A DNA stretch of 48,432 nt from Cognaticolwellia sp. (GCA_047621545.1 JBLHMA010000002.1:1-48432), one strand, 5' to 3'. Shown: positions 1 to 43,183, counted from the first letter of the stretch. A program made the numbers and translations. The notes: a model not told the origin generated them from the letters alone.

Positions 1-130
1 CTATCCCACGTCGGGCGTGGAGAGTGGGCAGAGGGCCGCCTTGCCAGTAGTCACCACCGTATATGAGACCAGCGCCAAGCTCCCAGGCAGGTGCCGGTCC
101 GAGAACCAGCGCGGCGGCCAATAGGGTCAT
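1..130 (-). CDS. Partial CDS (first 43 codons, continues past the left window edge): small secreted beta-rich protein, paralog of 453..998 and 995..1498
   Basis: My own reverse-strand translation from the ATG at 130-128 gives MTLLAAALVLGPAPAWELGAGLIYGGDYWQGGPLPTLHARRGI..., with no in-frame stop before position 1. The start looks like a signal peptide. It is followed by the motif P-x-W-E-[LV]-[GS]-[AG]-G, which the two upstream paralogs also carry. It is too short to appear in the ORF track. Confidence 0.4.
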   Translation of the reverse strand, partial: MTLLAAALVLGPAPAWELGAGLIYGGDYWQGGPLPTLHARRGI

Positions 131-210
131 TCAGTCTCCTCCCGACGCGTCGGCGTAAAGCTCACGCCCCAAGACACCATAGCCAACTGATTCCAGATCA
201 GGTTGAAGAA

Positions 211-456
211 TCAGATCTGGAATGAGAGGTTCCCAACATTGCGGTACCAGCCGAGGCTCAGGTAGGGATCGACCCGACCCGTTCGAAGGAGGCAGCCCGA
301 GCGACCCCCAACGGGTCCAATCCCAAACCCAATTCCTGTGTGGACAGCGGACATACTATGGGTGTACCTGCTGTAGTGGGTGACTCCCAAGTCTGCGGAA
401 AGGTCAACCGGCTTAGCTAAAGAAACAGCGTTCACAAGCAGGATAACGGAGTTCAT
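211..456 (-). CDS. Small secreted hypothetical protein (81 aa)
   Basis: Internal ATG of ORF 211..516 gives MNSVILLVNAVSLAKPVDL..., a signal-peptide-like N-terminus. Its ATG overlaps the stop of the upstream gene as ATGA (453-456). Third-position GC is lower than in the neighbours, so the coding status is less certain. Confidence 0.4.
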   Translation of the reverse strand: MNSVILLVNAVSLAKPVDLSADLGVTHYSRYTHSMSAVHTGIGFGIGPVGGRSGCLLRTGRVDPYLSLGWYRNVGNLSFQI

Positions 457-998
457 ATCGGGAGCTCTCCCGGCTTGAATCGCGCGTCCTCCGCCGCAGA
501 GCCCTTCCAGGTCCAACTCAGGCCGAGCAGAACAAGAGAAGACTCAAAGTACGGGTACAAGGACGACGTACTGTCGTCCGCGACGAGCAGTCGTCCTTCT
601 CCCCACACGCACAGCGTCGGCGTGGTCTGGTAGTAAGCCCGCCCTCCAAGGTACCCAAAGTAGCGTCGGCGCTCCAACCAGGTTGAGGACTCAAAGAGCG
701 CAGAGTTCGGCTCGAGCCAGGTCCCGCTGTAGCCTATGCCCATCGACGCGCAAGCGCCCAGGCGCTGCGCTTTGCACAAGGACAGCTCGCCTTCCAGGTC
801 CCGCAGTTGAGGCCGCCACCCCACGCCAAACTGTATCGGACCCCAGCCGCGGCGGAGAGCCAACTGTACGCCGAGCTTCGGATCCAGAGAGCGGTCACTC
901 TGATAGGCCCCTGCGCTAACCTCCCACAGTGGGGTCAAATTCGCTGGCCCCGGGACCGGCTCCAGCGCCAATGCGACAGCGACAAGAAACGACCTCAT
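453..998 (-). CDS. Secreted beta-rich hypothetical protein (181 aa), possible small outer-membrane beta-barrel
   Basis: Internal ATG of ORF 453..1094 gives MRSFLVAVALALEPVPG.... It overlaps the upstream stop as ATGA (995-998). The sequence shows an alternating aromatic/Gly beta-strand pattern and the PLWEVSAG motif after the signal peptide. Confidence 0.6.
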   Translation of the reverse strand: MRSFLVAVALALEPVPGPANLTPLWEVSAGAYQSDRSLDPKLGVQLALRRGWGPIQFGVGWRPQLRDLEGELSLCKAQRLGACASMGIGYSGTWLEPNSALFESSTWLERRRYFGYLGGRAYYQTTPTLCVWGEGRLLVADDSTSSLYPYFESSLVLLGLSWTWKGSAAEDARFKPGELPI

Positions 999-1498
999 GG
1001 TTGCCCCTGGGGAGGAGGCAAGCGCCAGAGGAGGTGGCGCTTGTGGCGGGTCAGCGTCACGCCAGTAAACACCAAAGGCGGCCCCATTCTCCACCCTTCC
1101 ACATAGTAAGCTCTGTTGGAGCGGGCGTCCATATAGAGCGCCACTGCAGGTGCCAAAGGATAACTGACCCTAAGACTCAAGAAATGGAGAGCCGCGCTCG
1201 AGTACGTGTCCCCCAGAATATACCAGCTGTTGGCCCAGCCCCGCCCCGCTCCTGCACAGACCCAAAGACGCTCCTCGACGCACAACGACACAGAGACTGC
1301 GCGGTATATACCGGGCAGCCCTTCAACGGCCAACTGTGCTGGACCGATGCTCCTACGAAGATGAACAGACGGATAATAGGACAAACTGCCGCGAGAAATC
1401 CCTCCACCAACTTCCCAAACAGGCTGCCGACTGCGGTCCACCTCTCGTACATCATCGATGGCAGCGAAGGCGGGCAGACAGAGAACAAGGGCGATCAT
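995..1498 (-). CDS. Secreted beta-rich hypothetical protein (167 aa), paralog of 453..998
   Basis: Signal-peptide-like start MIALVLCLPAFAAIDD, followed by the PVWEVGGG motif. Its ATG overlaps the stop of the 738-aa gene as ATGA (1495-1498). Confidence 0.6.
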   Translation of the reverse strand: MIALVLCLPAFAAIDDVREVDRSRQPVWEVGGGISRGSLSYYPSVHLRRSIGPAQLAVEGLPGIYRAVSVSLCVEERLWVCAGAGRGWANSWYILGDTYSSAALHFLSLRVSYPLAPAVALYMDARSNRAYYVEGWRMGPPLVFTGVTLTRHKRHLLWRLPPPQGQP

Positions 1499-3711
1499 AG
1501 GCCACCGCCCGGGAGAGGCTCTTCCTCAAAGCCTTCCAGCCGGCAGGCGCGTAAGCAAGCCTGGTACTCCGAGAGGCTGATCGCAAACCCAGATGAGGCT
1601 TGTTCAAGGCAGGCCTCGACGCAGGGATCAGTATGCGAAGGCCCAAACTCCCCCCCCGTGCTGGGTCTGTCACAGCTGAGAGCCTCCTCGCTGCCACGGC
1701 TTGAACACCTTCCGACGCTACAAAAGTTGGGGTCGGAGACAAAGAAACCCGGCTCCACCAAGTCGCAACTGTAGTCAATATAGCCGTAGCCGGAGGACGC
1801 CCACGATGCGGTATCGAGCTTGCAGTCTCCCAACTTTCCAACCTTCTCAGCTCCGCAAGCGCAAGGATCACTGGCGTCGGATGAACACGCGTCATCGACG
1901 ACCAAGCGCACCGCATCCAATGGGAGTTGCTCCGCCGAGGTCACCGCTGGATAGTCTCCGACGCCTTCTACAGCCCACTCCCCCATAGGCAGGCCATTCT
2001 GCCCCATGGTCTTGCACAACCAACGCTGAGCCGCGATCTCAAAGCAGCAATTCCACGGACAGTGGCAGCCTTGCCCCATGAAGCTGTGACCCATTTCGTG
2101 TATCAGGGTTCGCCCGCTCCCGGCGATCATGCGCAAAGCGTAGCGCCCTATGTATTCCGCGCCACGCAGGTGCGAGAAGGAATAGGTTTGCCGTCCGTAA
2201 TCAAGGCTCATCCGGGCCCAGAAAAGAATCTGGTCTGCCACACAGGCGTCAAAGGCAACGGCCCAGGACTTGGTCTTCACACTTGCATCAGTTGACGGAG
2301 AGTACCCACCAGGACAAGTCCCATCTTCGGGCCGGTATCCAGAAGCCTTGGTCCCCGAGGGGTCGACATTCCCAGCCCACACCGAGGGTCCATCCTCCCA
2401 AATAGGAGTCCAGTCGTTCCATGCCTTAAAGCTGTCACAGTTCGGAAAGTCCGGCTTGAAGCCCTCCTTGCAATTCTGTCCAGAAGACAACTCAATCCCA
2501 ACGCAATCGTTCCGCGCCCGATCATCCATGCCGTCGACGCTCCCTCCAAAAATGTCCCACCGAAAGCGACAAGCGAAACGCGATTTCCCACTCTCCTGTC
2601 GTCTAGGCTGGTTCTCCGCTCGGAGCCCACTCAGGGAGTTCGCAACATAATTCCCAAACCCAGAGCAGAAGTCGGTTCCGGTGTAGTCATCCCGAACCTC
2701 CGACCACCCCACGTAGACTAGTTTCATCACCTGCTGCAGATAGACCCGGGGCGCTCCCTTCCCATACCACCAGAACAAGTAGTCCCCCTTGTCGAATGAT
2801 GTTGGAATATTGTAGCAGCCAATCAAGCTGTCAACCGTGCTCCACAAGGGACCGGTGTCGCGTTGAAAGTTCGGCCATACAAAATCAAGGGTGTAGTCCA
2901 CAGAACTGACCATCCCTCCCGGACTAGACTGGAAGCGGCCACCCTCCATCTCCAAGTAGTCTTTGATGTACTCCACAAACCAAGACGCTGGAACGCAGAA
3001 CTTGACCTCGCGATATTGATACTCGATCGCAAAGAAGCTGCGCACATCCAGGTCATCACACTCAGCCTTTGCCCAACCATGCCCCAGCTGTTCCTCGAAA
3101 GAGGGTTCAAGGGCGATGGACTCCCCTACAGCGGCCGCCGACTTGGCCTTGGGCAAGGTGTCATAGACGCTCCTCTTACGATTGGCAGTCGGCCGCTGGG
3201 ATCGTAGCGGGTAGAGTACACAGCACTTCTGTCCTTCTGGCCTACTCTTCAGGGCCTGGGACAACGCCAGCCCAATGTTTTGCCCATCCATGGCCAAACC
3301 TGCCAGCCCAGGAATCAGCAACACCGACCTGGCTTGTGGGGTTAAAAGCTCCGTCTTGCTTGCCTTTGGCCAAAGAATCGTCTCCGACGGTTCCCAAGAC
3401 ACCCCGCACTCAGGCGGTACGGGAACTCGCAGCGCAATACTTGGGGAGAAACGCTGCTCAGGCAGCACATCCCTAAAGACCGCCTTCTGCCCCTGGCGCG
3501 GCGCTGACTTTCGGACTTGGGATTCCTCGGCAGGCTGAAGCGTCTCCGTCCTGCTACCGGATTGATGCGAACCACAGCCACAATCGGCGCCACAGCCACC
3601 TGGGGGCTTGCCCCCGCAGCCGCAATCACTGGCATTTGAGCCACCGCAGCCGCAAGAACCTGACCCACTGCTGCAGCCACAGCTGCCTTTGGACTGTGCT
3701 CGCATCACCAT
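1495..3711 (-). CDS. Cys-rich putative zinc metallopeptidase (HExxH) with an N-terminal CGC-repeat tract and no recognisable signal peptide
   Basis: 738-aa ORF. HEMGH lies at residues 538-542 (nt 2086-2100, checked by reverse translation) in the context LIHEMGHSFMGQGCHC. I count 39 Cys in total, 9 of them within residues 11-46 (SCGCSSGSGSCGCGGSNASDCGCGGKPPGGCGADCGCG). An AAGGAG ribosome-binding site sits at the end of the upstream gene. Confidence 0.8.
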   Translation of the reverse strand: MVMRAQSKGSCGCSSGSGSCGCGGSNASDCGCGGKPPGGCGADCGCGSHQSGSRTETLQPAEESQVRKSAPRQGQKAVFRDVLPEQRFSPSIALRVPVPPECGVSWEPSETILWPKASKTELLTPQARSVLLIPGLAGLAMDGQNIGLALSQALKSRPEGQKCCVLYPLRSQRPTANRKRSVYDTLPKAKSAAAVGESIALEPSFEEQLGHGWAKAECDDLDVRSFFAIEYQYREVKFCVPASWFVEYIKDYLEMEGGRFQSSPGGMVSSVDYTLDFVWPNFQRDTGPLWSTVDSLIGCYNIPTSFDKGDYLFWWYGKGAPRVYLQQVMKLVYVGWSEVRDDYTGTDFCSGFGNYVANSLSGLRAENQPRRQESGKSRFACRFRWDIFGGSVDGMDDRARNDCVGIELSSGQNCKEGFKPDFPNCDSFKAWNDWTPIWEDGPSVWAGNVDPSGTKASGYRPEDGTCPGGYSPSTDASVKTKSWAVAFDACVADQILFWARMSLDYGRQTYSFSHLRGAEYIGRYALRMIAGSGRTLIHEMGHSFMGQGCHCPWNCCFEIAAQRWLCKTMGQNGLPMGEWAVEGVGDYPAVTSAEQLPLDAVRLVVDDACSSDASDPCACGAEKVGKLGDCKLDTASWASSGYGYIDYSCDLVEPGFFVSDPNFCSVGRCSSRGSEEALSCDRPSTGGEFGPSHTDPCVEACLEQASSGFAISLSEYQACLRACRLEGFEEEPLPGGGL

Positions 3712-3714
3712 GGC

Positions 3715-4056
3715 CTACTCCTTCGCCACAAGGTCGAGGAGAGCAACGGGGTCACCCGCAAAGGTCCCAACCCCCGCGACGCGAACGAAACGCATAAAGG
3801 TGGTCGTATCCAAGACACCCCCTGTACCGTTGCTATCTACAACCCAGGAGATGCCAGGGATGTCGATGTAGGCCCCCTCCTCGTCGATTGCGGCATGTTG
3901 AACCACAAGCTGTGCACCAGCCGTGCCGCTGCCAGCCTTAAGCAGCCGAAGGTGGAACACCACTTGCCGGTATGCTCCCAAATCCACTGCGTCCTGGCTC
4001 TGGGGGCCTTGGGTGATGGTTCCTGCATCCATGAGTCGTACGTACTGTCCTGCCAT
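3715..4056 (-). CDS. Hypothetical small protein (113 aa), first gene of the operon
   Basis: Clean ORF with high third-position GC. It has no signal peptide and a beta-rich composition. Its stop lies 3 nt before the ATG of the 738-aa gene. I recognise no family. Confidence 0.65.
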   Translation of the reverse strand: MAGQYVRLMDAGTITQGPQSQDAVDLGAYRQVVFHLRLLKAGSGTAGAQLVVQHAAIDEEGAYIDIPGISWVVDSNGTGGVLDTTTFMRFVRVAGVGTFAGDPVALLDLVAKE

Positions 4057-4189
4057 CTTTGTATCTCCAAGCTGGTTTCGCTATCGAAGAGCTCGAAAGC
4101 GACGTTCGCCCCCCCCAATCGATGAGACATAAGGAACATGCCATGCTTTCCCTTGGTCGTCAATGAGATTCCAGAGAAAAGACCAAGCC

Positions 4190-4600
4190 CTACTTCCCGT
4201 CCCGCACCGGCACCCCAAACTTGCCAAAGTGCTCGATCAAGATGTGCCCAGCGATGTAGTTCGTCGCCAAGGGGACCTCGTGCACATCACACAGTCTCAT
4301 GAGCATCTGCACATCGGGTTCGTGGGGGTGCTTGTCCAGTGGGTCGCGGAAGAAGACCACTCCTTGCACCTCCCCCTTGGTGACCATCGCGGCGATCTCC
4401 GCATCTCCGCCAAGCGGTCCAGAGTGCACACGCTCGACCTTGGTGATGCCAGCATCCAAGATCAGAGTGCCGGTGGTTCCGGTGGTGACAATGTCCACCT
4501 CCTCCCGGTTGAAGAACTCCAGGCGCTTCATGACGAAGGAGACCATCGAGGCCTTCTTTCCGTCATGGGCAATCAGGGCGACGCGCATCCGCTTCGGCAC
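4190..4600 (-). CDS. mgsA: Methylglyoxal synthase
   Basis: 136 aa with the hallmark MgsA motifs ALIAHDGKK, TTGTTG, GPLGGDAEI and FFRDPL..HPHEPDV..L.RL..VH.VPLATN. Confidence 0.93.
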   Translation of the reverse strand: MPKRMRVALIAHDGKKASMVSFVMKRLEFFNREEVDIVTTGTTGTLILDAGITKVERVHSGPLGGDAEIAAMVTKGEVQGVVFFRDPLDKHPHEPDVQMLMRLCDVHEVPLATNYIAGHILIEHFGKFGVPVRDGK

Positions 4601-4624
4601 AGCAGCTCCAGGCTTTGGGCAAGC

Positions 4625-5461
4625 TTAGCCTCTGGTGGAGTAGAGACCCACACCTTGTGCACCAGCCGTGACATCCCAGCCCAGGTAGTCCACGGGTCCG
4701 GACTGCATCAAAGACAAGATGCGTCCCTGTCCCACGGCGTCCGTGGCAGCCAGGAGCCCGACCAGCTCTGCGCTGGGCTCTCCGATGTCCAACTTGGCGC
4801 CATCCTTCAGTCCCTCCGCGCCTATGCGAATGCTCGCGAAGCGCTGGGCGTCCTCCAGCTCAAGCTCTTGCAGCCGGGCAATGGTGGCTTGGGGGATGGA
4901 GCGCGTTGGCAACCAGGCAAGCGTGCGTTGCCAGCCAGGAGCACCGGGAGGCTGGGCAAAGTACAGCTTGTGCTCCAGGGCCCGACTCTCCCCTTCAAGC
5001 GTCCAAGACTGCGCCACGAAGTGCACCTTGGGGCAGCCCAGAATCTGCGCGGTGTGGGCAATGCCAAGCAGGCTCTTGCGGTCCACGCCGTCCTGGTTCA
5101 ACCACTGCAGCACGGTCTCCACAGGAGGGCGGCGGCGGAAGTAGAGCGAGATCTCCCGGGGACCGCTGGCCCCAAAGTCCACCTTGAGAAAGACACGCCG
5201 GCCCTCGAAGCGGTTCATCCACAGAGTCGCCCGCGCGAGGTCGGGCCGGCCCGCGTTTTGGAGCCCGAAATGCGCCATCAGCCGCAGCACCCGCTCGCAG
5301 TAGTCCGGCCCGTCTCCGTTGATCATCGCGCCCACACCACCCCGGTGGCTGTGCACGGAGAGCTCCAAGGGGGCCACCGGCTCCAAGAAGCGCACTAGGT
5401 CCAAGCCAGGCTGAGTCGGGAGACCTTGGTGGACGAGCAGATCGCTGAGACGTTGGTGCAT
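4625..5461 (-). CDS. Hypothetical protein (278 aa), possible PT-barrel (ABBA prenyltransferase-like) architecture
   Basis: Five beta-hairpin-like segments recur, separated by helical stretches: FLKVDFGASGPREISLYF, VHFVAQSW...HKLYFAQP, FASIRIGAEGLKDGAKLDIG, LGWDVTAGAQGVGLYS. The fold assignment is inference only. Confidence 0.7.
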   Translation of the reverse strand: MHQRLSDLLVHQGLPTQPGLDLVRFLEPVAPLELSVHSHRGGVGAMINGDGPDYCERVLRLMAHFGLQNAGRPDLARATLWMNRFEGRRVFLKVDFGASGPREISLYFRRRPPVETVLQWLNQDGVDRKSLLGIAHTAQILGCPKVHFVAQSWTLEGESRALEHKLYFAQPPGAPGWQRTLAWLPTRSIPQATIARLQELELEDAQRFASIRIGAEGLKDGAKLDIGEPSAELVGLLAATDAVGQGRILSLMQSGPVDYLGWDVTAGAQGVGLYSTRG

Positions 5462-5470
5462 CTCTAGAGC

Positions 5471-6067
5471 CTACTCCGGCGACCTGGGCGGCGGCACCAT
5501 CAAGGACAGCCCTCCCTGCATCTCCCAGGCAGCGAGCTGCTGGACAGGAACGCCGCCAGAGCGAATCTCCGTGCGGCGTAGATCTCCAAACACGCGCACC
5601 ACGGGCACCAAAGCGATGCGGTCACCCCAGACCGGAATGGCCACCCCGCTCTCAATACCGATGACCGGAATGACGGTGTTGGCGACCAGCTCTCCGCTGT
5701 CCTCGTAGCGGCGCACCGAGACCCCACCCATGGCCGTGAGGATGGGACTCCACGGCCCGCCAGCAGCCCACTGGGCGCAGATCAGCGTCTCCACTGGCTG
5801 CAGCGTTCGCTCTTCTCCCAAGCGGGGCAGGGGGCGCGGATAGCCCCAGTCGACCTCCACCCCCAAGCGAACGCCAGACGGAGTGGTCACACCGCCACGG
5901 ATCCAGGCGTTGGCACCCCACCAGGTCGCGTCACGGCGGGCCACGACAAAGCTGCCCTGAACCCAGGGGGCCGACGCCAACTCCACAGCGCCAAACAGGC
6001 CCCCTCCTTGGGGACCTGTTCCAGTAGGGACAGCCAGCGCAGCCCCAACCAGCAAACCTGCGATCAC
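5471..6067 (-). CDS. Secreted beta-rich hypothetical protein (198 aa), possible small OM beta-barrel
   Basis: The GTG start overlaps the sucB stop as GTGA (6064-6067). N-terminus is [16 protein letters not shown], followed by an alternating beta-strand pattern. Confidence 0.65.
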
Positions 6068-7254
6068 ACCTCGAGGAGGATGCGCTCAGGCGCCTCGACC
6101 AGCTGCTTGACCTTGACCAAGAAGCTCACAGCCTCTCGCCCGTCGATGATGCGGTGGTCGTAGGACAGGGCCAGGTACATCATCGGACGCAGCTCGATGT
6201 TGGTGCCAACCGCCACGGGGCGCTGCTGCATGGCGTGCATGCCCAAGATGGCGACCTGGGGTGGGTTGATGATGGGGGTGCTCATCAGGGAACCGAACAC
6301 ACCCCCATTGGAGATGGTGAAGGTCCCGTCCTTGAAGTCGTCCATCGTCAGCTTGTTGTCCCGCGCGCGGCCGGCCAGCTCGCGGATGCCACCCTCGGTC
6401 TGGGCCATGCTCAGACGGTCGGCGTCGCGCAGCACCGGCACGGTCAGGCCCTTGGGCCCCGAGACCGCGACACCGATGTTGTAGTAGCGCTTGTAGAGGA
6501 TCTCATTGCCGTCGATCTCGGCGTTGGCAGCAGGGAACTCCTTGAGAGCTTCCACGCAGGCCTTGACGAAGAAAGGCATGAAGCCCAGCTTGAAGCCGTT
6601 CTTCTTAACGAAGGCGTCCTGGTAGGTCTTGCGCAGGGCCAGGATGCCGCTCATGTCCACTTCGTTGAAAGTGGTCAGCAACGCAGCGTCTTGCTGGGCC
6701 TGAACCAAGCGGCGCGCGATGGTGCGCCGCAGCGGGCTCATCTTGACGCGCTCAACGCGGCGCTCGCTCGGGGCCGGTGCGGGCTGAGCCACTCCACCAT
6801 TGGCCACCGCAGCCGCCTGCTGGCCGGCGTCCACGTCACCAGAAAGAATGCGACCGCGCTTGCCAGAGCCAGCGACCGTGGTCAGGTCAACGCCCTTTTC
6901 GGAGGCGGCTTGGCGGGCGGCAGGTCCAGCCGGTCCACCGGGGGCGGCATCGGAGACAGGAGCCGCAGGAGCCGCAGGAGCCGCAGGAGCCGCAGGAGCC
7001 GCATCGCCCCTGGCCTGGGTCTCATCGATGCGAGCGACCACAGTGCCGATATCAACCTCGTCGCCGTCTTCACCAATGAGCTCGGTGATGACGCCGGAGA
7101 CAGGCGAAGGAACGCCCATGGACGCCTTGTCGGAGTCGATCTCCAAGACGGTGTCACCAGCGTTTACGTAGTCCCCAACGGAGACGGCAAAGCCGGCAAT
7201 AAATACGGAGGGAATGGACTCCCCCACTTGCGGAATCTGCAGTTCGGTGGCCAT
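6064..7254 (-). CDS. sucB: Dihydrolipoyllysine-residue succinyltransferase (2-oxoglutarate dehydrogenase E2)
   Basis: Lipoyl domain with [15 protein letters not shown], an Ala/Pro linker, and a catalytic C-terminus with [13 protein letters not shown]. Start set at the internal ATG ([13 protein letters not shown], cat at 7252-7254). The Arg/Pro-rich 56-codon upstream extension of the ORF looks non-coding. Confidence 0.95.
6957..7003. repeat. Perfect 9-bp tandem repeat (agccgcagg, about 4.8 copies) inside sucB, encoding the (AAP)n linker
   Basis: Read directly: agccgcagg occurs 4 times at 6961-6996, plus a partial fifth copy. It translates on the minus strand to [16 protein letters not shown]. 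Confidence 0.9.
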
Positions 7255-10220: not shown

Positions 10221-10544
10221 ATGACCGAGCTTGAGTTCCGCCGCTACGTCTCCGAAGTGCTGGAGGCTCTGTTCGAGCAGATCGATGAACTGGACCCCGA
10301 CGAGCTCGACCCCACCTTTGCGGCCGGGGTGCTCAAGGTCGTCTTTGAGAAAGGCGGAACCTTCGTGCTCTCACAGCAAGTACCGGTTCAGGAACTCTGG
10401 CTCAGCGCGAACAGCACGGCGTGGCACTTCAAGTACGTCGACCAGGTCTGGGTCGAGCGGGACACAGCCGAGCCCATGTTGCCCCTGCTCTCCAAGCTCT
10501 TTGGCGAAAAAATGGGTGAAACGGTCACACTGTCGCTGGACTGA
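10221..10544 (+). CDS. cyaY: Frataxin-like iron-sulfur cluster assembly protein CyaY
   Basis: 107 aa, colinear with E. coli CyaY as I remember it: acidic helix EF..Y....L..L.EQIDELD, GVL.V.FE.GG.F.LS.Q.P..ELWLS, WHF. Confidence 0.88.
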   Translation: MTELEFRRYVSEVLEALFEQIDELDPDELDPTFAAGVLKVVFEKGGTFVLSQQVPVQELWLSANSTAWHFKYVDQVWVERDTAEPMLPLLSKLFGEKMGETVTLSLD

Positions 10545-10634
10545 GCTTGGGCCAAGCGGGCCAAAACTAGACTGCTTGAGTCGCCCACGTTGGAAGGTCG
10601 AGCTACCGTTCTGATACCTGGATGGAGAGCTGAC

Positions 10635-11489
10635 GTGCGCAAGACCTTTGCTTTGATGCTTTGCTGCTTTGGCCTGCTCTTCTCCTCAATGGCTCTGGCC
10701 GAAGTGCCCGACGCCACTTGGGACACGCTGGTCGGGCAGTCTGTGCTGTTGACAAATCCCCAGGGCAAGGAGATCCGCGGGACCCTGTTGGATGCCCAGG
10801 GAGAGACGCTGCGCATCGAGCGCGCGGACGGTAGCGTGGTCACGGTGGGCAAGTCCGAGGTGATCACAGCGAAGAACCTGGCGGTGTACACAAGCATCTC
10901 CGGTGAGCTCAAGGAGCCCGAGCCGGCCCCTGCCGAACCCACTCCGCCCAAGGCCACCGAGGTCCCTTCGGAGGCCACGCTCGGCCGCGACACCTCTACG
11001 GAGCCAGAAGTGGAGACAGAAGTGGAGCCAGCGCCGGTCAAGACTGATTCTGCCGAGCCGCTTCCCTCCGAAGACCAACCTTTCTCCATCGGCGTCCCAG
11101 TCCCCAATCCGGAGCTGGAGATGCAAGACGCCGTGGCTGGAGAAGTGGATGGAAGGGCGGCAGCGCAGATGCAGTCTCTGACCGGCCCCACCGCTGTGAG
11201 CGCCGGAGTCGGCATCGCCGCTGGAGCCATTACTCCCCTGTGTTGCTGCGCGGCGCCCTGTGCAGCGGCTGGCCCAGTATTTTACGGCCTGCAAAAGGTT
11301 GACCTCGTCGACCCCGGCGGCACCAAGACCTACAACGACGCGTACAACAACGCCTACTCCTCCGAGCTTAAGAAGCGCCGCTGGATCTGGACCGGCGTGG
11401 GTGCCGGAGCTGGCTTGTTGGTGGGCATCGGCGTGGGCTACGCGACAATGCTGACTGTGGACAACACCAACCTTCAGCCGGTCTTCTGA
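10635..11489 (+). CDS. Secreted protein: small beta domain, acidic Pro/Glu-rich linker, and a C-terminal Cys-containing two-helix membrane module
   Basis: GTG at 10635 is preceded by GGAGAG and gives the signal peptide VRKTFALMLCCFGLLFSSMALA/EV. The C-terminal approx. 110 aa are homologous to the C-termini of the next two genes (NDAYNNAYSSELKKRRWIWTGVGAGAGLLVG). Confidence 0.75.
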   Translation: MRKTFALMLCCFGLLFSSMALAEVPDATWDTLVGQSVLLTNPQGKEIRGTLLDAQGETLRIERADGSVVTVGKSEVITAKNLAVYTSISGELKEPEPAPAEPTPPKATEVPSEATLGRDTSTEPEVETEVEPAPVKTDSAEPLPSEDQPFSIGVPVPNPELEMQDAVAGEVDGRAAAQMQSLTGPTAVSAGVGIAAGAITPLCCCAAPCAAAGPVFYGLQKVDLVDPGGTKTYNDAYNNAYSSELKKRRWIWTGVGAGAGLLVGIGVGYATMLTVDNTNLQPVF

Positions 11490-11491
11490 GC

Positions 11492-12700
11492 ATGCTCGCC
11501 TTTCTACTAAGCACCGCCATGGCTCAAGAAGCACCCTCAACAACGGCCCCAGACCAAGAAGGGCCTGCCCAGGAAGCACCGGTTCCTGAAGCGCAAGCAG
11601 ATACGCCAGCCCCCAGCCCGCCTCCACCAACAGCCGAGGTCCTGCCCATCGCAGAGGCGCCTTTTGCTTGGGAACGCACACTGACCGCCCAGCACTGTCC
11701 CGCCGGCGGCTTTGACTTGAGCAAGGATGTCGAGGCCCCCATGGACGCGGTCCTGCTGCTCAAGGACAAGGAGGGAACCGGCAGCGGCGTGCTGATCAGC
11801 CCAGATGGTGTGGTGCTCACGGCAGCCCACGTGGTCGGAAAAAAGGAACGGGTCAAGGCTCTGACCCAGAGCGGCGAAGAGCTCACCCTGGAGGTGGTGC
11901 GTACCCACCCTTTCTACGATGTGGCCGTTCTAAAGGTGGTCGACGGCCCCGAAGAGCTCCCCTGCCTACAGCTCTCGGAGGTGCGGGCCACGCTGGGAAC
12001 CAGCGCCTACGTCATGGGTTCTCCTGCAGGCGAAGAACTCAGCTTCTCCGTCAGTCGTGGCATCGTGAGCGGCCGACGTGAGATCGGCGGAAGGAGCTTC
12101 CTGCAGACCGACGCAAGCGTGAACCCCGGCAACTCGGGTGGCCCGATGGTCAACGAGCAAGGCCAGGTCATGGGCATCGTGAGCTGGAAGGTGGCAGCCA
12201 CCGAGTACGAGGGACTGAGCTTTGCGGTCCCCGCGACGCGCGCCATGGAGTTTCTTGGCATCGAGACTGCGGACCAGACCGACCTGAACGAGCCAGGAGT
12301 CCGAATCGCCCCTGGGGCTGCGATGAACGAAGGCAAGGACGGGGAGTACCAGCGCGGCTTCGAGGCCGGGCGCCTGGCGGCAAAGAGCACCCCTTGGCTG
12401 GGCCCAATGGGCGTCGGAGCGGCGGCAGGCTGCGCAGCAGGCTTTACCCTGGGTCCATGCGGCGCCCCCATACTCTGCTTGGCCCCCGGCGCCGCACTGG
12501 CGTCTGTGGATGTGCCTGAGCTACCCGCAGACGACGCAGCAAACGACAGCTATCAGCGAGGCTACCTCTCCGGCTTCCAGGTCCAGACCCGACTGCGGCG
12601 CGCGGCCTACACCACAGCAGGCGCAGCTGGCGGCCTAATCGTGGGTAGCGCAATCGCCCTGACAACAGTCGGCGTGAGCTTCGGACCCTTCGCGCAGTGA
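11492..12700 (+). CDS. Trypsin-like (S1C/HtrA-type, no PDZ) serine protease with a C-terminal two-helix membrane module
   Basis: Signal peptide MLAFLLSTAMA/QE. Catalytic motifs are VVLTAAHVV (His), YDVAVLKV (Asp) and TDASVNPGNSGGPMVN (Ser). The start lies 2 nt after the upstream stop. Confidence 0.88.
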   Translation: MLAFLLSTAMAQEAPSTTAPDQEGPAQEAPVPEAQADTPAPSPPPPTAEVLPIAEAPFAWERTLTAQHCPAGGFDLSKDVEAPMDAVLLLKDKEGTGSGVLISPDGVVLTAAHVVGKKERVKALTQSGEELTLEVVRTHPFYDVAVLKVVDGPEELPCLQLSEVRATLGTSAYVMGSPAGEELSFSVSRGIVSGRREIGGRSFLQTDASVNPGNSGGPMVNEQGQVMGIVSWKVAATEYEGLSFAVPATRAMEFLGIETADQTDLNEPGVRIAPGAAMNEGKDGEYQRGFEAGRLAAKSTPWLGPMGVGAAAGCAAGFTLGPCGAPILCLAPGAALASVDVPELPADDAANDSYQRGYLSGFQVQTRLRRAAYTTAGAAGGLIVGSAIALTTVGVSFGPFAQ

Positions 12701-13806
12701 ACCTGGGCCTGCTCCTGGCGCTCTTTCCCGCCGCAAGCGCCCAGTCAGAAGCGCGCCAATTGACAGTGCAGACCTGTACTGAGACCTCCTCCCCCAGCCA
12801 AGCCTTGGGCGCCGTACTGCGTACCCGCCATGGCAGCGCCGTGCTCATCAGCTCTGATGGGGTCGTCCTGAGCAACACCCAGTCCATCGGCCAGGACTGG
12901 TCCCGCCCCATTCAGGCCTGGGCCCCCAGCGGCACACCGCTGACCCTGAATGTCGTACGGGTGGACACCACAACCCAGAGCGTGCTGCTCAAAGTACAAG
13001 GGGAGCAGACTTGGCCTTGCCTGCCCCTGAATACGGCTGAGTTCTCCCTTGGAGAGCCTGCCTATGTCTTGGGCTTTCCAGATCTCACGGCACCGCCATC
13101 CATCAGTCTGGGTATTGTCTCCGCCAAGCGCCAAGTCGCTGGTCGACCGGTCATCCAGACGGACGCTAGCGTGAACCCCCGCAACACCGGCGGCGCCCTG
13201 GTCAACCAAGAGGGCCAAGTCTTGGGCCTGGTGAGCAGCAAGGTCTCCGGGGTCGCCTACGAAGGCCTGGCTTTTGCAGTGCCTGTCGACGAAGTGTTGA
13301 AGGGCTTGAAGCTCAGTATTGCCCCCCAGACTGACCTTACAGACCCAGGCCTCTTGCCCCAGTACAGCCCAGCGCAGGCCGGCACAAACCAGGCCACCTT
13401 GGGCGCAGAAGCCGGCGTGGCCGACGCCCGCTCTGCCTTTCAGCCGCTTCGCCCCCTGGTCCTGGGCGCCGGCGCTGGCGCCTGCTTGGGCTTCGCAGGC
13501 TGCCTGACCCCTTGCGTGGGTCCTGCCTGCATGGTGCCCACTGGAGCCTTGGCTCCAGCCGCCCTGGCTTTTGCCCAAAAGCCCAACATCGACCCGGCCG
13601 TGAACGCCGCCCTGGAGAGCACCAGCCCGGACTACCAGTTGGGCTACGAGATTGCCTACGGCCTGGAGACCCGTAAGCGTAGGGGGCTGTACACCGGCGC
13701 TGGTGCCATCGCCGGGACCTTTGTTGGGGCAACTGTGGGCACCTTGGTGTACATCGCCGTCATCGGCGTGACGCCATGGGACCGAATCGAGATTCCAAAC
13801 TTCTGA
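12697..13806 (+). CDS. Trypsin-fold pseudoprotease (catalytic triad replaced) with the same C-terminal membrane module
   Basis: The GTG start overlaps the upstream stop as GTGA. It aligns with 11492..12700, but the motifs read VVLSNTQSI (His to Gln), TQSVLLKV (Asp to Gln) and TDASVNPRNTGGALVN (Ser to Thr). Confidence 0.85.
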   Translation: MNLGLLLALFPAASAQSEARQLTVQTCTETSSPSQALGAVLRTRHGSAVLISSDGVVLSNTQSIGQDWSRPIQAWAPSGTPLTLNVVRVDTTTQSVLLKVQGEQTWPCLPLNTAEFSLGEPAYVLGFPDLTAPPSISLGIVSAKRQVAGRPVIQTDASVNPRNTGGALVNQEGQVLGLVSSKVSGVAYEGLAFAVPVDEVLKGLKLSIAPQTDLTDPGLLPQYSPAQAGTNQATLGAEAGVADARSAFQPLRPLVLGAGAGACLGFAGCLTPCVGPACMVPTGALAPAALAFAQKPNIDPAVNAALESTSPDYQLGYEIAYGLETRKRRGLYTGAGAIAGTFVGATVGTLVYIAVIGVTPWDRIEIPNF

Positions 13807-24228: not shown

Positions 24229-25800
24229 CTAGAACTCGTACAGGTAGACGGAGCCCTTGTCGTTGCTGGCGCGGCGGCTTGCGCCGACCACGAGCACATC
24301 GCGGAACAGGGTGTCCTGGTTCTCTACAACGTCCACCCAGCTGCCGTAGCGGTCATCGGTTGCGGAGCCGGCCAGCTTCACATCCGCGTCGGAGGTAGCG
24401 CTCAAACTGGAGCCGGAGGTGGGCGCCAGGAAGACGTACACCGCGCCTCGGTCATTGCTGCTCTGACGGTTGGCCGAGACCACGATGTCAGGGGAGCCAT
24501 CGCGGTCCACATCGCCGGTCGCCAAGCCAGCGCCAAACTGGTCGCCGGTGAGCTGCCCGGAGAACTTGATGTCAGCCTGAGCGCCAATGGCCCCGGTGAC
24601 CGCGTTGTTGCCGCGAATCAAGTACGCCGCGCCGCGTCCGTTGTGGCTCAGTGCGCCAGCGAGGAAGTCGTCATAGCCATCGCCGTCAAAGTCGCCGGCC
24701 TCGGCCAGCTGATTGCCTGCCTCGCTGCCTGCGAGGTTGCCACGCAGAATCACATCCGCATCATTCATGTTCGCGGGCAAGGTGCTCGCGGTGAGGATGT
24801 AAACGGAGCCTGAATCAGTCTTGCCAGCGTGATCACGGCTGCGTGCGCCGACTACAAAGTCCGCAGCGCCATCACCATCAAAGTCGCCGATGCCGCGCAC
24901 GCGGGCACCAACGGCGTCTCCAGCCCCCTCTCCGCCCACTACACCGTCGGCGTCACTCAGATCCATGTCTGCTGTAATGGGACCATTGATCAGGTAGACC
25001 GCACCCGACTCAGCGCCACCGTCATCGGCGCCGCTGGCTCCAATGATCACGTCGACGTTGCCGTCTCCGTCCAGGTCACCGACGATGTCCAGGCCGGAGC
25101 CCGCAAAGTCATTGGCCTTGATTCCAGAGATCCGAAGGGCGGCGTCGGGGAGGGTATTGTTGCCGCGGTCAGCCCAAGTCACGATGTAAACCGCACCGGC
25201 GTTGACCTTCCAGGTGTCGGTCGGGTTGTCCCAGGAACGCGCGCCAATCAGAAATTCGTTTCCAGCTACGCCATTCAGGTCACCGTCCTCGAGGAGGACC
25301 ATGTCGCGCTTGTAACCGTAGCCAGCCACGTTTTCAGCAACGGCTCCGCTCTCGCCGTACCACTTGCCCTTCACCCCATCAACGCGGAAGCTGCCCGACG
25401 TGAAGCGGCCCTTGTCCATGTACGCGCCACCTGCACCGGCACTCTCAGACCCAGCTGCGACCTCCGAGCGGTTGTCACCGTTCATGTCGCCCAGGGCAGC
25501 AACAGTCATACCCAGATTGTCGCCAGCGGACTCACCCTGCCAAGAAGTCCGGGCGACGTTGGCGCCAATGCTCGTGCCCAGGGGCACAGCAATGGCCGTA
25601 CCGTTGGGGGCCCAGCGATCGACGCCCGGCTTGTAGAGCGGGTCATCCCACTTGGTGCTCATCTCCTCGGGAAGAAGCGGCTCGATGTTCTCATCGTTGG
25701 CCACGGCACCGCCAGGAGCATCCAACTCCATTGGCTCGACAGCGCATGCGGAGAGGGCGGCAAGGCCTCCTACCAGGACGAGAATGGACAGCTTGTGCAT
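24229..25800 (-). CDS. FG-GAP (integrin-alpha-like) repeat lipoprotein
   Basis: Lipoprotein signal MHKLSILVLVGGLAALSAC. Repeated Ca-binding-type motifs GDMNGDNRSE, GDLDGDGNVD, GDFDGDGAAD, GDFDGDGYDD and GDVDRDGSPD. Confidence 0.88.
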   Translation of the reverse strand: MHKLSILVLVGGLAALSACAVEPMELDAPGGAVANDENIEPLLPEEMSTKWDDPLYKPGVDRWAPNGTAIAVPLGTSIGANVARTSWQGESAGDNLGMTVAALGDMNGDNRSEVAAGSESAGAGGAYMDKGRFTSGSFRVDGVKGKWYGESGAVAENVAGYGYKRDMVLLEDGDLNGVAGNEFLIGARSWDNPTDTWKVNAGAVYIVTWADRGNNTLPDAALRISGIKANDFAGSGLDIVGDLDGDGNVDVIIGASGADDGGAESGAVYLINGPITADMDLSDADGVVGGEGAGDAVGARVRGIGDFDGDGAADFVVGARSRDHAGKTDSGSVYILTASTLPANMNDADVILRGNLAGSEAGNQLAEAGDFDGDGYDDFLAGALSHNGRGAAYLIRGNNAVTGAIGAQADIKFSGQLTGDQFGAGLATGDVDRDGSPDIVVSANRQSSNDRGAVYVFLAPTSGSSLSATSDADVKLAGSATDDRYGSWVDVVENQDTLFRDVLVVGASRRASNDKGSVYLYEF

Positions 25801-26013
25801 CTTGAGATCTCCGAGGGGTGCTAATGACGACGTTCTGTACCTTTCAATCGGCTCTACCAAAGGTGGACTTGAGGTCTGGATACGTCGCACCATCAGCAAT
25901 CAGCCTGACCTACCGCACATGGCCCCGCAAGTGGTCATGTGAACTCATAGGTGACAGGTGATCGCGAGAAGCCGCACGGGGTAAGGATTTCCGACAATCT
26001 TTCACCATGGTGT

Positions 26014-26066
26014 CCACAAACAGAAACCGCCGCAAAGCGCACCACTCTGTGGCGCCCATTGCGGCG
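26014..26066 (-). terminator. Rho-independent-terminator-like hairpin downstream of the second FG-GAP gene
   Basis: The minus strand reads cgccgcaatgggcgccacagagtggtgcgctttgcggcg, with outer arms cgccgca/tgcggcg and an inner gcgccac/gtggtgcgc stem with a bulge. It is followed by gtttctgtttgtgg (T-rich). It lies 25 nt after the stop at 26091. Confidence 0.55.
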
Positions 26067-26090
26067 ATCCTGAACGATTCAGTTCCCGAA

Positions 26091-27620
26091 TCAGGGGGTC
26101 TGGAACATGTAGACCGCGCCCTTGTTGCCGGTACCTCGCGAGCTGGCGCCGACGATTAGGGTGTTCTTTGAGTCCACCGTGGTGTTCTCGGCAACATCGA
26201 CCCACGAGCCGAAGCGGTCGTTAGAGCCCACACCCGCGAGCTTGGAGTCGGCGTCATAGGACGCGATGGTTCCTGTGACGGGTCCATAGAAGACGTAAAC
26301 CGCGCCACGATCAGTAGAAGACTGGCGGTTGGCCGCGACGACCACATCTTCGATGCCGTCACCGGAGATGTCACCCGAGGTGACTCCGGACCCGAACTGG
26401 TCCCCAGATGACTGCCCAACAAAGCGGGCATATGCCACCTCTCCCATCTTGCCGGATGTGACCGAGCCCTGGAGAACATAGGCGTTGCCCAGACCGTTGT
26501 GTCCGAGAGCACCGACCAAGTAGTCATTGAGCCCGTCTCCATCCAGGTCGCCCGCCTCACTCACGCCACTGCCGCCTGCCGAGCCGTCCTTGTTTCCGCG
26601 AATGATGATGTCGGCATCGGCCAGGGTGGCCGGCATGGTGCTGGAGGTGATCACGTAGACCGCCCCTGCGTCCACGCCGTTGGTGTCCTCTGTCCGGGCG
26701 CCTACAGCGAAGTCGTCTACGCCGTCCCCGTCCACATCCCCGAGTCCGACCACGCGGGAGCCAATGGCGTCCTCAGCCGTCTCGCCGCCGATCTCCGCGT
26801 CAGCCACAGCCAGATCCACGTCCGCGGTGATCGGGCCATTGATGATGTAGACGCAACCGCTCGCTGAGCCGTTCGTGTCTGCACCGGTCGCACCCACAGC
26901 CAAGTCGGCAAAACCGTCTCCATCCAGGTCACCCAGGATATCTACACCTGCGCCTGCGTACTCGTAGGCCTTCGTTCCGGTGAGGGCGGTGGCTCCTGCA
27001 GGCAGCGTGTTGTTCCCACGATCAAAGCCAAACACCAGATAAGCCGCGCCGGCATTCAGCTTCCAAGTGTCGACGGGATCATTCCAGGTGCGCCCCCCGA
27101 TGATGAAGTCGTCATTCCCGTCCCCATCCACATCACCGCCACCGGCAACCTGCTCCCCAGCACGACTTCCGCTGACCCCGTACCAGCGACCCTTGGAGGC
27201 ATCTGCCCGGTAGTTGCCGTCCTTGAAGCTGGCGCGGTTCATGTAGGCGGCCCCATCGCCCGAGCCCGAACCAGAGCCGTAGATGGAGCCCATGGCCATA
27301 TCTTCCAAGCCGTCCCCGTTCAGGTCGCCGACCGCCGCCACGCCAATACCCAAGCGATCCCCATCACCCTCGCCCTTCCAAGTGGCATCGACCACGTTGA
27401 AGGCGTTGGAGGTGCCCAAGGGGACGTTGACCGGGTGCCCTTGAGGCGCCCATCGGTCCACGTCGGAGCGGAAGTCAGGATCGTCCCAGGACAGGTTGGC
27501 ATCCTCGCCTAGAGCGTCGTAGCGATCTCCGTCCTCCAAGATGTAGGACTCCTCCATCCCCGGGCTGGAGCAGGCGAAGAGTACGAGGGGCATCAGAAGG
27601 ATGGCGATCTTGCGCGGCAT
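26091..27620 (-). CDS. FG-GAP repeat lipoprotein, paralog of 24229..25800
   Basis: Lipoprotein signal MPRKIAILLMPLVLFAC. Motifs GDLNGDGLED, GDVDGDGNDD, GDLDGDGFAD, GDVDGDGVDD, GDLDGDGLND and GDISGDGIED. It shares the N-terminal W(D/S)DP..(R/K)..VDRWAP motif with its paralog. Confidence 0.9.
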   Translation of the reverse strand: MPRKIAILLMPLVLFACSSPGMEESYILEDGDRYDALGEDANLSWDDPDFRSDVDRWAPQGHPVNVPLGTSNAFNVVDATWKGEGDGDRLGIGVAAVGDLNGDGLEDMAMGSIYGSGSGSGDGAAYMNRASFKDGNYRADASKGRWYGVSGSRAGEQVAGGGDVDGDGNDDFIIGGRTWNDPVDTWKLNAGAAYLVFGFDRGNNTLPAGATALTGTKAYEYAGAGVDILGDLDGDGFADLAVGATGADTNGSASGCVYIINGPITADVDLAVADAEIGGETAEDAIGSRVVGLGDVDGDGVDDFAVGARTEDTNGVDAGAVYVITSSTMPATLADADIIIRGNKDGSAGGSGVSEAGDLDGDGLNDYLVGALGHNGLGNAYVLQGSVTSGKMGEVAYARFVGQSSGDQFGSGVTSGDISGDGIEDVVVAANRQSSTDRGAVYVFYGPVTGTIASYDADSKLAGVGSNDRFGSWVDVAENTTVDSKNTLIVGASSRGTGNKGAVYMFQTP

Positions 27621-32529: not shown

Positions 32530-32967
32530 ATGCCCGTCTCGCTGCATATCCCTTCCCTTTTCTTCCTCTCTGCGCTCTCCCTGAGCGCATCGGCCTTGGG
32601 GGCACCGGTCCTCTGCGCGGCCGGTCTGGGCTGGACCCTACTCTCGGCGATCGGCGCCGCCCGTCCTCTGCGGCTCTACCAGCTGCTGCTCTTCGTTGGC
32701 ATCGCTCTGGCCACCGGTGCATCTTGGACCTGGTGCCTACTCCTCAGCGCCCCCGTCACCGTGGCCGCCATCGCCTGCACCGTGGCCAGTCCGCGCTATC
32801 GGGGCCCCGGCGTGGCTCTGCTGGTCGAGAAGTTGCAGAATAAGCGGACCTCCCCAACCGTTGTGTGCCCATGGACCATGCCCCAGAAATCGCCGCCAGC
32901 CGTTTTGGTCTTGGGCCCCGTCCTAGCGAGCTCGCGCGTATGCGAAGGGACCCCCGTGGTTGGCTGA
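32530..32967 (+). CDS. Possible small membrane protein (about 3 TM); its 3' end overlaps the DUF1800 gene
   Basis: ATG at 32530 gives MPVSLHIPSLFFLSALSLSASALGAPVLCAAGLGW.... Third-position GC is high for about 110 codons. The last approx. 100 nt overlap the next gene in another frame, which lowers confidence. Confidence 0.3.
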   Translation: MPVSLHIPSLFFLSALSLSASALGAPVLCAAGLGWTLLSAIGAARPLRLYQLLLFVGIALATGASWTWCLLLSAPVTVAAIACTVASPRYRGPGVALLVEKLQNKRTSPTVVCPWTMPQKSPPAVLVLGPVLASSRVCEGTPVVG

Positions 32968-34172: not shown

Positions 34173-34186
34173 CGCCGATCAAGGGA

Positions 34187-41656: not shown

Positions 41657-41658
41657 CC

Positions 41659-43056: not shown

Positions 43057-43183
43057 CGGACTGTTGCTCCGCGGAGAGGGGTCCATGGGAAAAACCCACG
43101 ACGTGCAGGCAACACCTGCTAATTCGGGCTTCGGTGGCAAGATACCCACCATGTGAGTTGCCCGTCAACTCCCCAGGTGACAC

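Follow-up and report, generated by a model that had tools for sequence, protein, structure and literature searches.

A cysteine-rich, zinc-peptidase-like protein encoded with a small partner and exported proteins in a variable gene cassette of Myxococcota-type bacteria

Introduction

Cargo loci of type VI secretion systems (T6SS), such as Tse-Tsi and Tle-Tli with Tap or Eag, encode a signal-less effector enzyme and an adjacent small cytoplasmic helper, with signal-peptide or lipobox immunity genes, often arrayed, immediately downstream; they occupy scattered, mobile, strain-variable islands, and free-standing T6SS effector-immunity pairs exist. In the serralysin-Inh pair (AprA-AprI), a metalloprotease without an N-terminal signal is encoded beside a small inhibitor that acts in the periplasm and shields the producer. 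Large type III effectors with long disordered N-termini are co-translated with small acidic class I chaperones. Polymorphic toxins, reportedly described by Zhang et al. in 2012, are said to combine a constant N-terminal trafficking module with variable toxin-plus-immunity modules. Cargo toxins of extracellular contractile injection systems (eCIS; PVC/Afp type) have a polar N-terminus, which is an established loading signal (PMC9054023, PMC11297309). Polar, disordered N-termini, HExxH proteins and phage-related accessory parts are features of these toxins and of those with an eCIS_core/DUF4157 domain. Here we describe a locus that shares features with several of these systems, in the first 4,056 nt of a 48,432-nt stretch of DNA from Cognaticolwellia sp. 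(GCA_047621545.1 JBLHMA010000002.1:1-48432; "the window", always at its full length).

The locus is an operon of six genes (g1 to g6; Table 1) and is one copy of an apparently undescribed gene cassette of Myxococcota-type bacteria, in which a small protein (component A; g1), a large zinc-metallopeptidase-like protein (component B; g2) and one or more exported proteins (component C) are encoded in that order. We tentatively propose, with slightly less than even confidence, that B is a peptidase effector exported by a non-Sec route, with A serving it as chaperone or adaptor and with the downstream proteins as its neutralisers in the periplasm.

Results

The A-B-C gene order is conserved in distant relatives

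Exhaustive scanning with HMMER of the representatives of 1.84 billion clusters (at 50% identity) retrieved 152 homologs of g2 at E <= 1e-3, 119 of them at E <= 1e-10. All of the at least 152 clusters of this family are labelled hypothetical, and nearly all homologs align best over residues ~226-592 of g2, a core of ~360 aa. A word-indexed search with g2 retrieved only g2 itself, a core-domain profile retrieved three proteins, and a scan of genome contigs with g2 gave no match. The initial annotation recognised no family for g1, or for g2 outside its HExxH site; g2 indeed has no family in Pfam, NCBIfam, PHROG or PADLOC, and neither Pfam, NCBIfam nor Foldseek gave a confident match to a characterised peptidase family; Pfam and NCBIfam had no match for any of the six operon proteins. 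A search of the literature for the B family or its motif found no description, and the family, its A partner and its N-terminal motif appear undescribed.

We compared the surroundings of B homologs (24-31% identity to g2) on contigs L082-85, L086/87, L088, L089, L090, L091, L094, L095, L096-98, L099/100 and L101/102. A homolog of A ends 1-5 nt before B in all 12 independent contigs with a visible upstream side, L095 being counted after correction of a mis-called B start, and the order A-B-C, with overlaps or gaps of 1-5 nt, is found in 12 independent contigs. The neighbourhood is thus kept in relatives, and this conserved adjacency bears out the suggestion that g1 and g2 form a tight, non-accidental, stoichiometric pair. 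All cassette contigs have 62-70% GC, and three B-family members bear the source name "Myxococcota bacterium". Besides that of the window, the metagenome-assembled genomes GCA_002343455.1, GCA_031383765.1, GCA_964556105.1, GCA_005792815.1 and GCA_964359125.1 contain the cassette.

In the window, ORF (open reading frame) calls placed six consecutive minus-strand genes exactly where the initial annotation had them, and its description of the junctions was likewise accurate: GCC, a gap of 3 nt, separates the stop codon of g1 (TAG, 3717-3715) from the ATG of g2; AAGGAG (3723-3718) lies inside the 3' end of g1; and the next three junctions are ATGA start/stop overlaps (1498-1495, 998-995 and 456-453). 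That these genes are real is supported by a low ratio of nonsynonymous to synonymous divergence for g1 (dN/dS 0.05 against the relative L001), by the 152 homolog clusters of g2 and by the protein-level similarity of g3 and g4. GC content at third codon positions is 0.61-0.65 in g1, g2, g3, g5 and g6 and 0.74 in g4, against 0.72-0.82 in the surrounding genes. Rfam, promoter and terminator scans of positions 1-6200 showed nothing notable. Leftward, the operon could be followed on one other contig only, L103, the sole other contig with g3-g5, which differs by one single-nucleotide polymorphism and ends 21 nt past g5.

Near-invariant zinc-site residues in component B

Across 71 aligned B sequences, the residues of the putative zinc site are conserved almost without exception (H538 in 70, E539 in 71, H542 in 70, H550 in 71, C551 in 69, C556 in 64 and C566 in 66), and the site follows the pattern HExGH-x6/7-H-C-x3-C-C-[FM]...W-x-C. 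Four residues, C414, D493, E539 and H550, are invariant in this alignment; H538, H542, G541, C299, C349, C381, C403, C551, C556, C566, C609 and C649 are conserved in at least 90%. Near-invariance of the catalytic residues argues that B is a zinc hydrolase. One member, P0011, has AREVGH in place of HExGH, losing the first zinc ligand, and is possibly an inactivated paralog. A fixed DNA pattern for the zinc site, searched in metagenome contigs, gave two true loci and two chance matches; L092 and L093 were rejected as B loci because stop codons surround the pattern match.

Among PDB entries, a profile of the core (alignment A3) matches the catalytic zinc site of ADAM33 at E 8.5e-4 (46 residues) and archaemetzincins at E 0.24-0.56 (only 22-26 residues); together, these matches of the zinc segment suggest that the catalytic site of B is metzincin-like. 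Like metzincins, B has a helical HExxH, a Gly turn, a third His and then a Cys-rich segment, the three arrangements being HExGHxxxGxxxHCxxxCC in B, HExxHxxGxxHD..CC in ADAM33 and HExxHxxGxxHCxxxxC in AmzA. Unlike in metzincins, the spacing between the second and third His is one to two residues longer in B: the Gly (G546) is present in 56 of the 71 sequences, giving HExxH-x3-G-x3-H rather than the consensus HExxHxxGxxH. Just one of the 71 members matches the archaemetzincin family (M54, PF07998), weakly (E 0.003), and this is the only Pfam match in the alignment. On contig L086, ~4.8 kb upstream of its cassette, a 258-aa protein (L086:145-921) has the metzincin consensus as HEATHGFGPPH and is Cys-rich after it; it has no Pfam match.

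A cysteine-rich N-terminus without a recognisable export signal

The initial annotation counted 39 Cys and an HEMGH motif in g2 (residues 538-542) and saw no signal peptide, lipobox or transmembrane helix, all of which we confirmed: the N-terminus is polar and rich in Cys, Gly and Ser, the highest 19-residue Kyte-Doolittle mean is 1.26, and no hydrophobic signal, twin-arginine motif or lipobox was found there by hydropathy or in the sequence. The Cys/Gly cluster is a hallmark of the family. Among 71 members with long N-terminal extensions, at least three Cys fall within the first 30 residues in 46 and a CxC within the first ten in 38, and several of the exceptions are mis-called starts (L091 and P0017 variants; L095, whose B truly starts as VGCGCDGGG immediately after A). 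Likewise, the database B entries P0157, P0160, P0098 and P0020 were started too late or fused to the end of A; as a result of such calls the CxC hallmark is under-represented in protein databases. No tandem repeats were found in the DNA of the g2 Cys cluster. Beyond the cluster, 45-46 of the 71 sequences keep P134 and G135. The aligned members contain 10-39 Cys each (12-39 in those longer than 450 aa), and the conserved Cys are isolated rather than arranged in CxxC pairs. An AlphaFold2 (AF2) model of g2 based on the 71-sequence alignment has a predicted template-modelling score of 0.73, with a predicted local distance difference test (pLDDT) of ~82-98 over most of the core and dips to 60-75; single-sequence AF2 gave a pLDDT of 36.

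The position of the CxC bears on the possibility that B is an anti-eukaryote effector, in which host enzymes would, once B is injected, lipidate the Cys cluster and so anchor the peptidase to host membranes, the lipoproteins then not being immunity proteins. Host S-acylation and N-myristoylation of injected effectors are established for type III effectors. Most complete members of the B family have a CxC at the extreme N-terminus, several begin MGC or MGxC, and some start MGCGC, which resembles the dual-acylation motif of Src-family kinases; the eCIS associations described below, weak as they are, point the same way. However, Gly2 is missing in many members (MNSCGC, MDKCGC, MSCGC), the many core Cys suit an oxidising compartment and not the eukaryotic cytosol, and self-protection in the bacterial periplasm would better account for the small exported proteins that invariably follow B. 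We consider an anti-eukaryote role very unlikely.

Component A and its coupling to B

The sole database homolog of g1 (82% identity) comes from L001, a contig of 2.1 kb whose gene order matches that of the window: orf278, mgsA, g1 and a g2 homolog (g2'). Homologs from the distant contigs are 28-41% identical to g1 and define a family of 108-120 aa with 0-2 Cys and a pI of 4.7-6.6. The C-terminal Lys-Glu of these proteins is near-invariant (alignment A7), and its codons supply B with its ribosome-binding site, AAGGAG. The window and L001 agree fully (100% identity) at the g1/g2 junction, whereas almost all third positions of the adjoining g1 codons have changed; the coupling of A to B in translation is thus conserved too, and the conservation of Lys-Glu at the protein level may mirror a constraint on the RNA. 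In its small size and acidity, and in being co-translated with a large partner whose N-terminal region is long and disordered, A recalls type III class I chaperones. Unlike in those systems, no type III secretion system (T3SS) genes were seen, and immunity-like genes downstream are not a T3SS feature.

Two cassettes contain a second, diverged A gene (~30% identical) after the lipoprotein genes, at L095:3548-3892 and L094:3593-3850. The extra A in L095 is an orphan with no B after it; the L094 contig ends inside its extra A.

Five of 12 A proteins match phrog_5707, a phage family of unknown function (best E 4.4e-6); A has no Pfam or PDB match, and hhalign showed no relationship to a tube protein of contractile injection systems (CIS). 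The phage match, together with small lipoprotein genes that overlap the 3' end of an enzyme gene and so recall o-spanins, could indicate a phage or tailocin remnant, such as a lysis peptidase, or one associated with the virion, paired with a spanin-like lipoprotein. Against this, no holin, transmembrane protein or phage gene lies nearby, A has no significant tblastn match in 50,697 phage genomes (the single match has E = 3), B has no PHROG match, and viral contigs in IMG/VR contain no exact match to the two commonest variants of the zinc-site motif. A phage origin is, in our estimation, highly improbable.

Variable exported proteins downstream of B

B is followed directly by at least one exported protein gene in every context seen, its start usually overlapping the B stop and the gene often duplicated, an arrangement that would fit T6SS immunity genes. 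In relatives, C is usually a lipoprotein 83-148 aa long that contains 7-10 Cys, and many share the motif CDxCGxxWxC...W...DxPCxCI..G (alignment A5). Tandem lipoprotein paralogs occur in L095 (two, 73% identical), L096 (two, 34% identical) and L099 (two); in L101, C is a Cys-rich lipoprotein of 229 aa, and in L090 it is an FG-GAP lipoprotein whose gene, truncated by the contig end, encodes at least 258 aa. Across cassettes the exported gene is present in one to four copies, with three or four in the window, and such tandem duplication recalls poly-immunity arrays.

In the window, g3 to g6 each open with a hydrophobic 10-mer (hydropathy 2.6-2.7), which fits a signal peptide. The initial annotation called these genes a run of paralogs, and this stands for g3, g4 and g6: g3 and g4 are 35% identical over 72 aa (score 97, against 32+/-5.6 in shuffles), the observed scores with g6 were reached by 0/1000 (g3-g6) and 5/1000 (g4-g6) shuffles, and all three have the motif P-x-W-E-[VL]-x-[AG]-G ... 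RR[GS][IW]. It fails for g5, which has no significant similarity to any of the others. Nor did the label of proteins resembling outer-membrane proteins (OMPs) hold for g3-g6, which have no Pfam or NCBIfam match and whose complete members, g3-g5, end without a terminal aromatic residue (...PQGQP, ...GELPI and ...LSFQI, respectively).

That label was part of a model in which OMP-like secreted partners form, in a stoichiometric assembly, a dedicated export or activation module for a signal-less protease. Such a module would be consistent with the strict start/stop overlaps throughout the operon, with the constant presence of an exported protein behind B, and with the alternating hydrophobic patterns and signal-like N-termini of g3 and g4. 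However, the partner family is not conserved, being lipoproteins in relatives and g3-g6 here, without detectable homology; it ranges from one to four copies; proteins of 83-104 aa with four disulfides would be unable to build a translocon; the OMP characteristics are lacking; and passage across the inner membrane is left unexplained. We therefore regard a dedicated export module as very unlikely. Variation and duplication of an exported partner behind a conserved enzyme are instead what immunity or inhibitor genes show, rather than a translocon. The serralysin-Inh pair offers a comparable arrangement, unlike which the cassette has no RTX repeats, adjacent type I secretion genes or sequence similarity to that pair.

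The cassette is a variable island with mosaic divergence

Two GTDB representatives, L002 and L003 (96% and 91% identical MgsA), keep orf198, orf278 and mgsA and lack the cassette. In L003, mgsA is followed by ordinary genes. In L002, the spot (10441-13189) holds an operon convergent on mgsA that encodes an eCIS_core/DUF4157 protein (11585-13189; 534 aa, HEAAH, PF13699 at E 1.1e-10), a 146-aa protein and a 229-aa lipoprotein. The cassette is thus a variable island, and the 3' side of mgsA looks like a hot spot for toxin islands. PF13699 itself was not found by Pfam search in g2 or 70 relatives. The genes orf278 and orf198, the latter with a signal-like N-terminus, lie between sucB and mgsA in the window (4625-6067); neither has a Pfam match, both are kept in L002 and L003 at 71-88% identity, and the orf278 of L002 has an insertion of ~47 residues.

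The cassette of L096-98 is flanked by transposases. These are of the DDE and Y2 types (L096:1-9113 and L096:12675-13229), and genes for DndE-like and SMC-like ATPase proteins adjoin, a mobile or defence-island setting. Such surroundings would suit an intracellular system, in which B is a cytoplasmic metal-cluster or zinc protease with metal-binding Cys, A is its regulator or inhibitor, and the module acts in stress response, quality control of envelope proteins or phage defence; the exported proteins would then be substrates, sensors or just co-regulated. The lack of an export signal in B and of linked secretion genes, and the remote relationship of A to a phage protein family, also favour an intracellular role. 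However, the conserved Cys are isolated and do not form CxxC metal-finger pairs, those of the zinc segment align with Cys of ADAM33, PADLOC gave no match, most cassette contexts are ordinary chromosomal genes, and a Cys-free A beside a Cys-rich B and C fits separate compartments. On balance we judge an intracellular system to be unlikely.

Comparison of window positions 3546-4056 with L001:985-1500 revealed a sharp shift in divergence. Whereas g1 is ~73% identical and the Cys-cluster region of g2 ~62% identical, the body of g2 from ~codon 38 is 98-100% identical, with few scattered differences; synonymous divergence (dS) is 1.86 for g1 and only 0.40 for mgsA, the flanking housekeeping gene. 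This pattern indicates a recombination breakpoint that would separate A and the N-terminus of B from the B body. A chimeric metagenome contig is a less likely alternative, and even in that case the relative must possess both a g1 and a g2 N-terminus of its own. Modular recombination of this kind, with a break after ~codon 38 of g2, is reminiscent of polymorphic toxins; unlike in those toxins, the enzymatic core of B is the conserved part, and no known trafficking domain was detected.

Feature coordinates and other observations in the window

The features of the locus are listed in Table 1. Elsewhere in the window, tandem gene pairs encode trypsin-like peptidases, FG-GAP repeat proteins and PKD-domain proteins, two of each, and a DUF1800/DUF1501 pair; the spans listed for these pairs are 11492-13806, 24229-27620, 40241-43152 and 32865-35329.

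Table 1. Positions of the operon genes and of the regions of g2, counted from the first nucleotide of the window
Feature	Position	Strand	Description
g1 (component A)	3715..4056	-	113 aa, Cys-free, acidic (pI 4.7), cytoplasmic; from ORF call and homologs
AAGGAG Shine-Dalgarno of g2	3718..3723	-	Final two sense codons (Lys-Glu) of g1
g2 (component B)	1495..3711	-	738 aa, 39 Cys, zinc-metallopeptidase-like
g2 residues 1-50	3562..3711	-	Cys/Gly/Ser-rich cluster: 9 Cys, 15 Gly; CGC...CGCGG...CGCGG...CGC; family hallmark
g2 residues 51-125	part of 3232..3561	-	Disordered linker, pLDDT <50 (AF2)
g2 residues ~126-160	part of 3232..3561	-	Semi-conserved "LLxPG" hairpin and helix, pLDDT 57-84
g2 residues 161-225			Linker
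g2 residues 226-592	1936..3036	-	Conserved family core, ~ten near-invariant Cys (alignments A1, A3)
g2 residues 538-566	2014..2100	-	Putative zinc site: HEMGH-x7-H550-C551-x3-C555-C556-F...W564-x-C566
g2 residues 593-738	1498..1935	-	Variable Cys-rich C-terminal extension, 12 Cys, mostly low/medium pLDDT
g3	995..1498	-	167 aa, putative signal peptide (hydrophobic N-terminus); g4 and g6 are paralogs
g4	453..998	-	181 aa from ATG at 998, putative signal peptide; paralog of g3
g5	211..456	-	81 aa, putative signal peptide; kinship to g3, g4 and g6 not demonstrable
g6	1..130	-	5' end (43 codons), further g3/g4 paralog; continues past contig end

Discussion

We propose that the cassette is a stand-alone, mobile, three-part unit whose logic, by analogy, matches that of known toxin-helper-immunity loci. 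B would be a zinc-dependent, peptidase-like effector that is synthesised in the cytoplasm, lacks a Sec or Tat signal and folds via disulfides outside that compartment. That B acts outside the cytoplasm is suggested by the contrast between a Cys-free A and a Cys-rich B and C, by the isolated Cys of B and by its lack of a Sec/Tat signal; alignment of the zinc-segment Cys with those of ADAM33, an extracellular protease, supports the same view. A, which is best read as a chaperone or adaptor given its stoichiometric coupling to B and its co-divergence with the N-terminus of B, would be cytoplasmic, produced in fixed proportion through translational coupling; it would probably handle the Cys cluster, disordered linker and "LLxPG" region, and would hand B over to a delivery machine encoded elsewhere. 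The exported proteins, Cys-rich lipoproteins in most relatives and g3-g6 in the window, would be immunity proteins or inhibitors that neutralise B in the periplasm or envelope of producer cells and their kin; that the periplasm of the producer is protected is suggested by the presence of variable, duplicated small exported proteins after B.

For delivery, our favoured guess is a contractile-injection-type machine, either a T6SS or an eCIS. Three weak pointers underlie this guess: the eCIS toxin at the hot spot in the sister strain L002, an orphan tube-like gene on L082, and the polar nature of eCIS signals. At a distance of 3.3 kb from the cassette, the orphan gene (L082:6233-6676; TIGR02241, under the cut-offs for CIS1 and CIS5) has a methyltransferase gene on one side and clpB on the other; the neighbouring ClpB was rejected as a ClpV, being the housekeeping ClpB. 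Since free-standing T6SS effector-immunity pairs exist, missing linkage to T6SS genes is compatible with a T6SS route.

Several observations weigh against a secreted peptidase effector with periplasmic neutralisers. With regard to the enzyme, the Met-turn is not conserved: the position of ADAM33 C-V-M is M569 in g2 and Arg in 38 of the 71 sequences, and B further differs from the adamalysins (M12B) in having no Pfam Reprolysin match. Foldseek of the g2 AF2 model found no match at E <= 1 in the PDB or BFVD, leaving the ~360-aa domain, unlike metzincins, without a structural neighbour; the metzincin catalytic-domain fold was not found in the PDB search, where large insertions could mask local similarity. 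A confident model without a structural neighbour means that the term "peptidase" is owed to the motif. With regard to the exported proteins, export of g3-g6 is predicted solely from their hydrophobic N-termini, and hhalign (probability 0.2%) ruled out that the g3/g4 family is the Cys-rich lipoprotein family of relatives. With regard to delivery, no T6SS, eCIS, T3SS or type I secretion system genes were found in the window, and the orphan tube-like gene is the only such gene found within 10 kb of the cassette in L082, L095, L096, L099 and L101. No vgrG, hcp, PAAR or known adaptor genes (DUF4123, DUF1795, DUF2169) were found in the same regions, and both the CxC cluster and A lie outside the known T6SS marker families. 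We know of no precedent for a conserved CxC cluster as a T6SS or eCIS signal. Indeed, known eCIS signals have no conserved sequence, unlike the CxC cluster of B; g2 lacks the PF13699 domain, no eCIS structural genes lie nearby, and eCIS toxins are often without immunity genes (PMC3482391).

A bolder possibility, which we think unlikely, is that A and the N-terminal CxC/Gly cluster of B define a new export or loading signal in Myxococcota, one that would serve to deliver a zinc peptidase whose fold has no counterpart in the PDB. Such a signal could mark a new cargo class of a contractile injection or predation apparatus, or a self-contained release route.

The B family exposes systematic start-codon miscalls that hide an N-terminal motif in databases. 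If the proposed roles are correct, the cassette would represent an unannotated family of effectors, accompanied by helper and antidote genes of its own, in largely uncultured, often predatory Myxococcota-type bacteria, and would provide candidate protease-inhibitor pairs. The known weapons of interbacterial conflict or predation would also gain a new zinc-peptidase fold and a new motif for N-terminal recognition, and A together with the CxC N-terminus would be a sequence handle for the cargo of a delivery system whose substrates are mostly unknown in this phylum.

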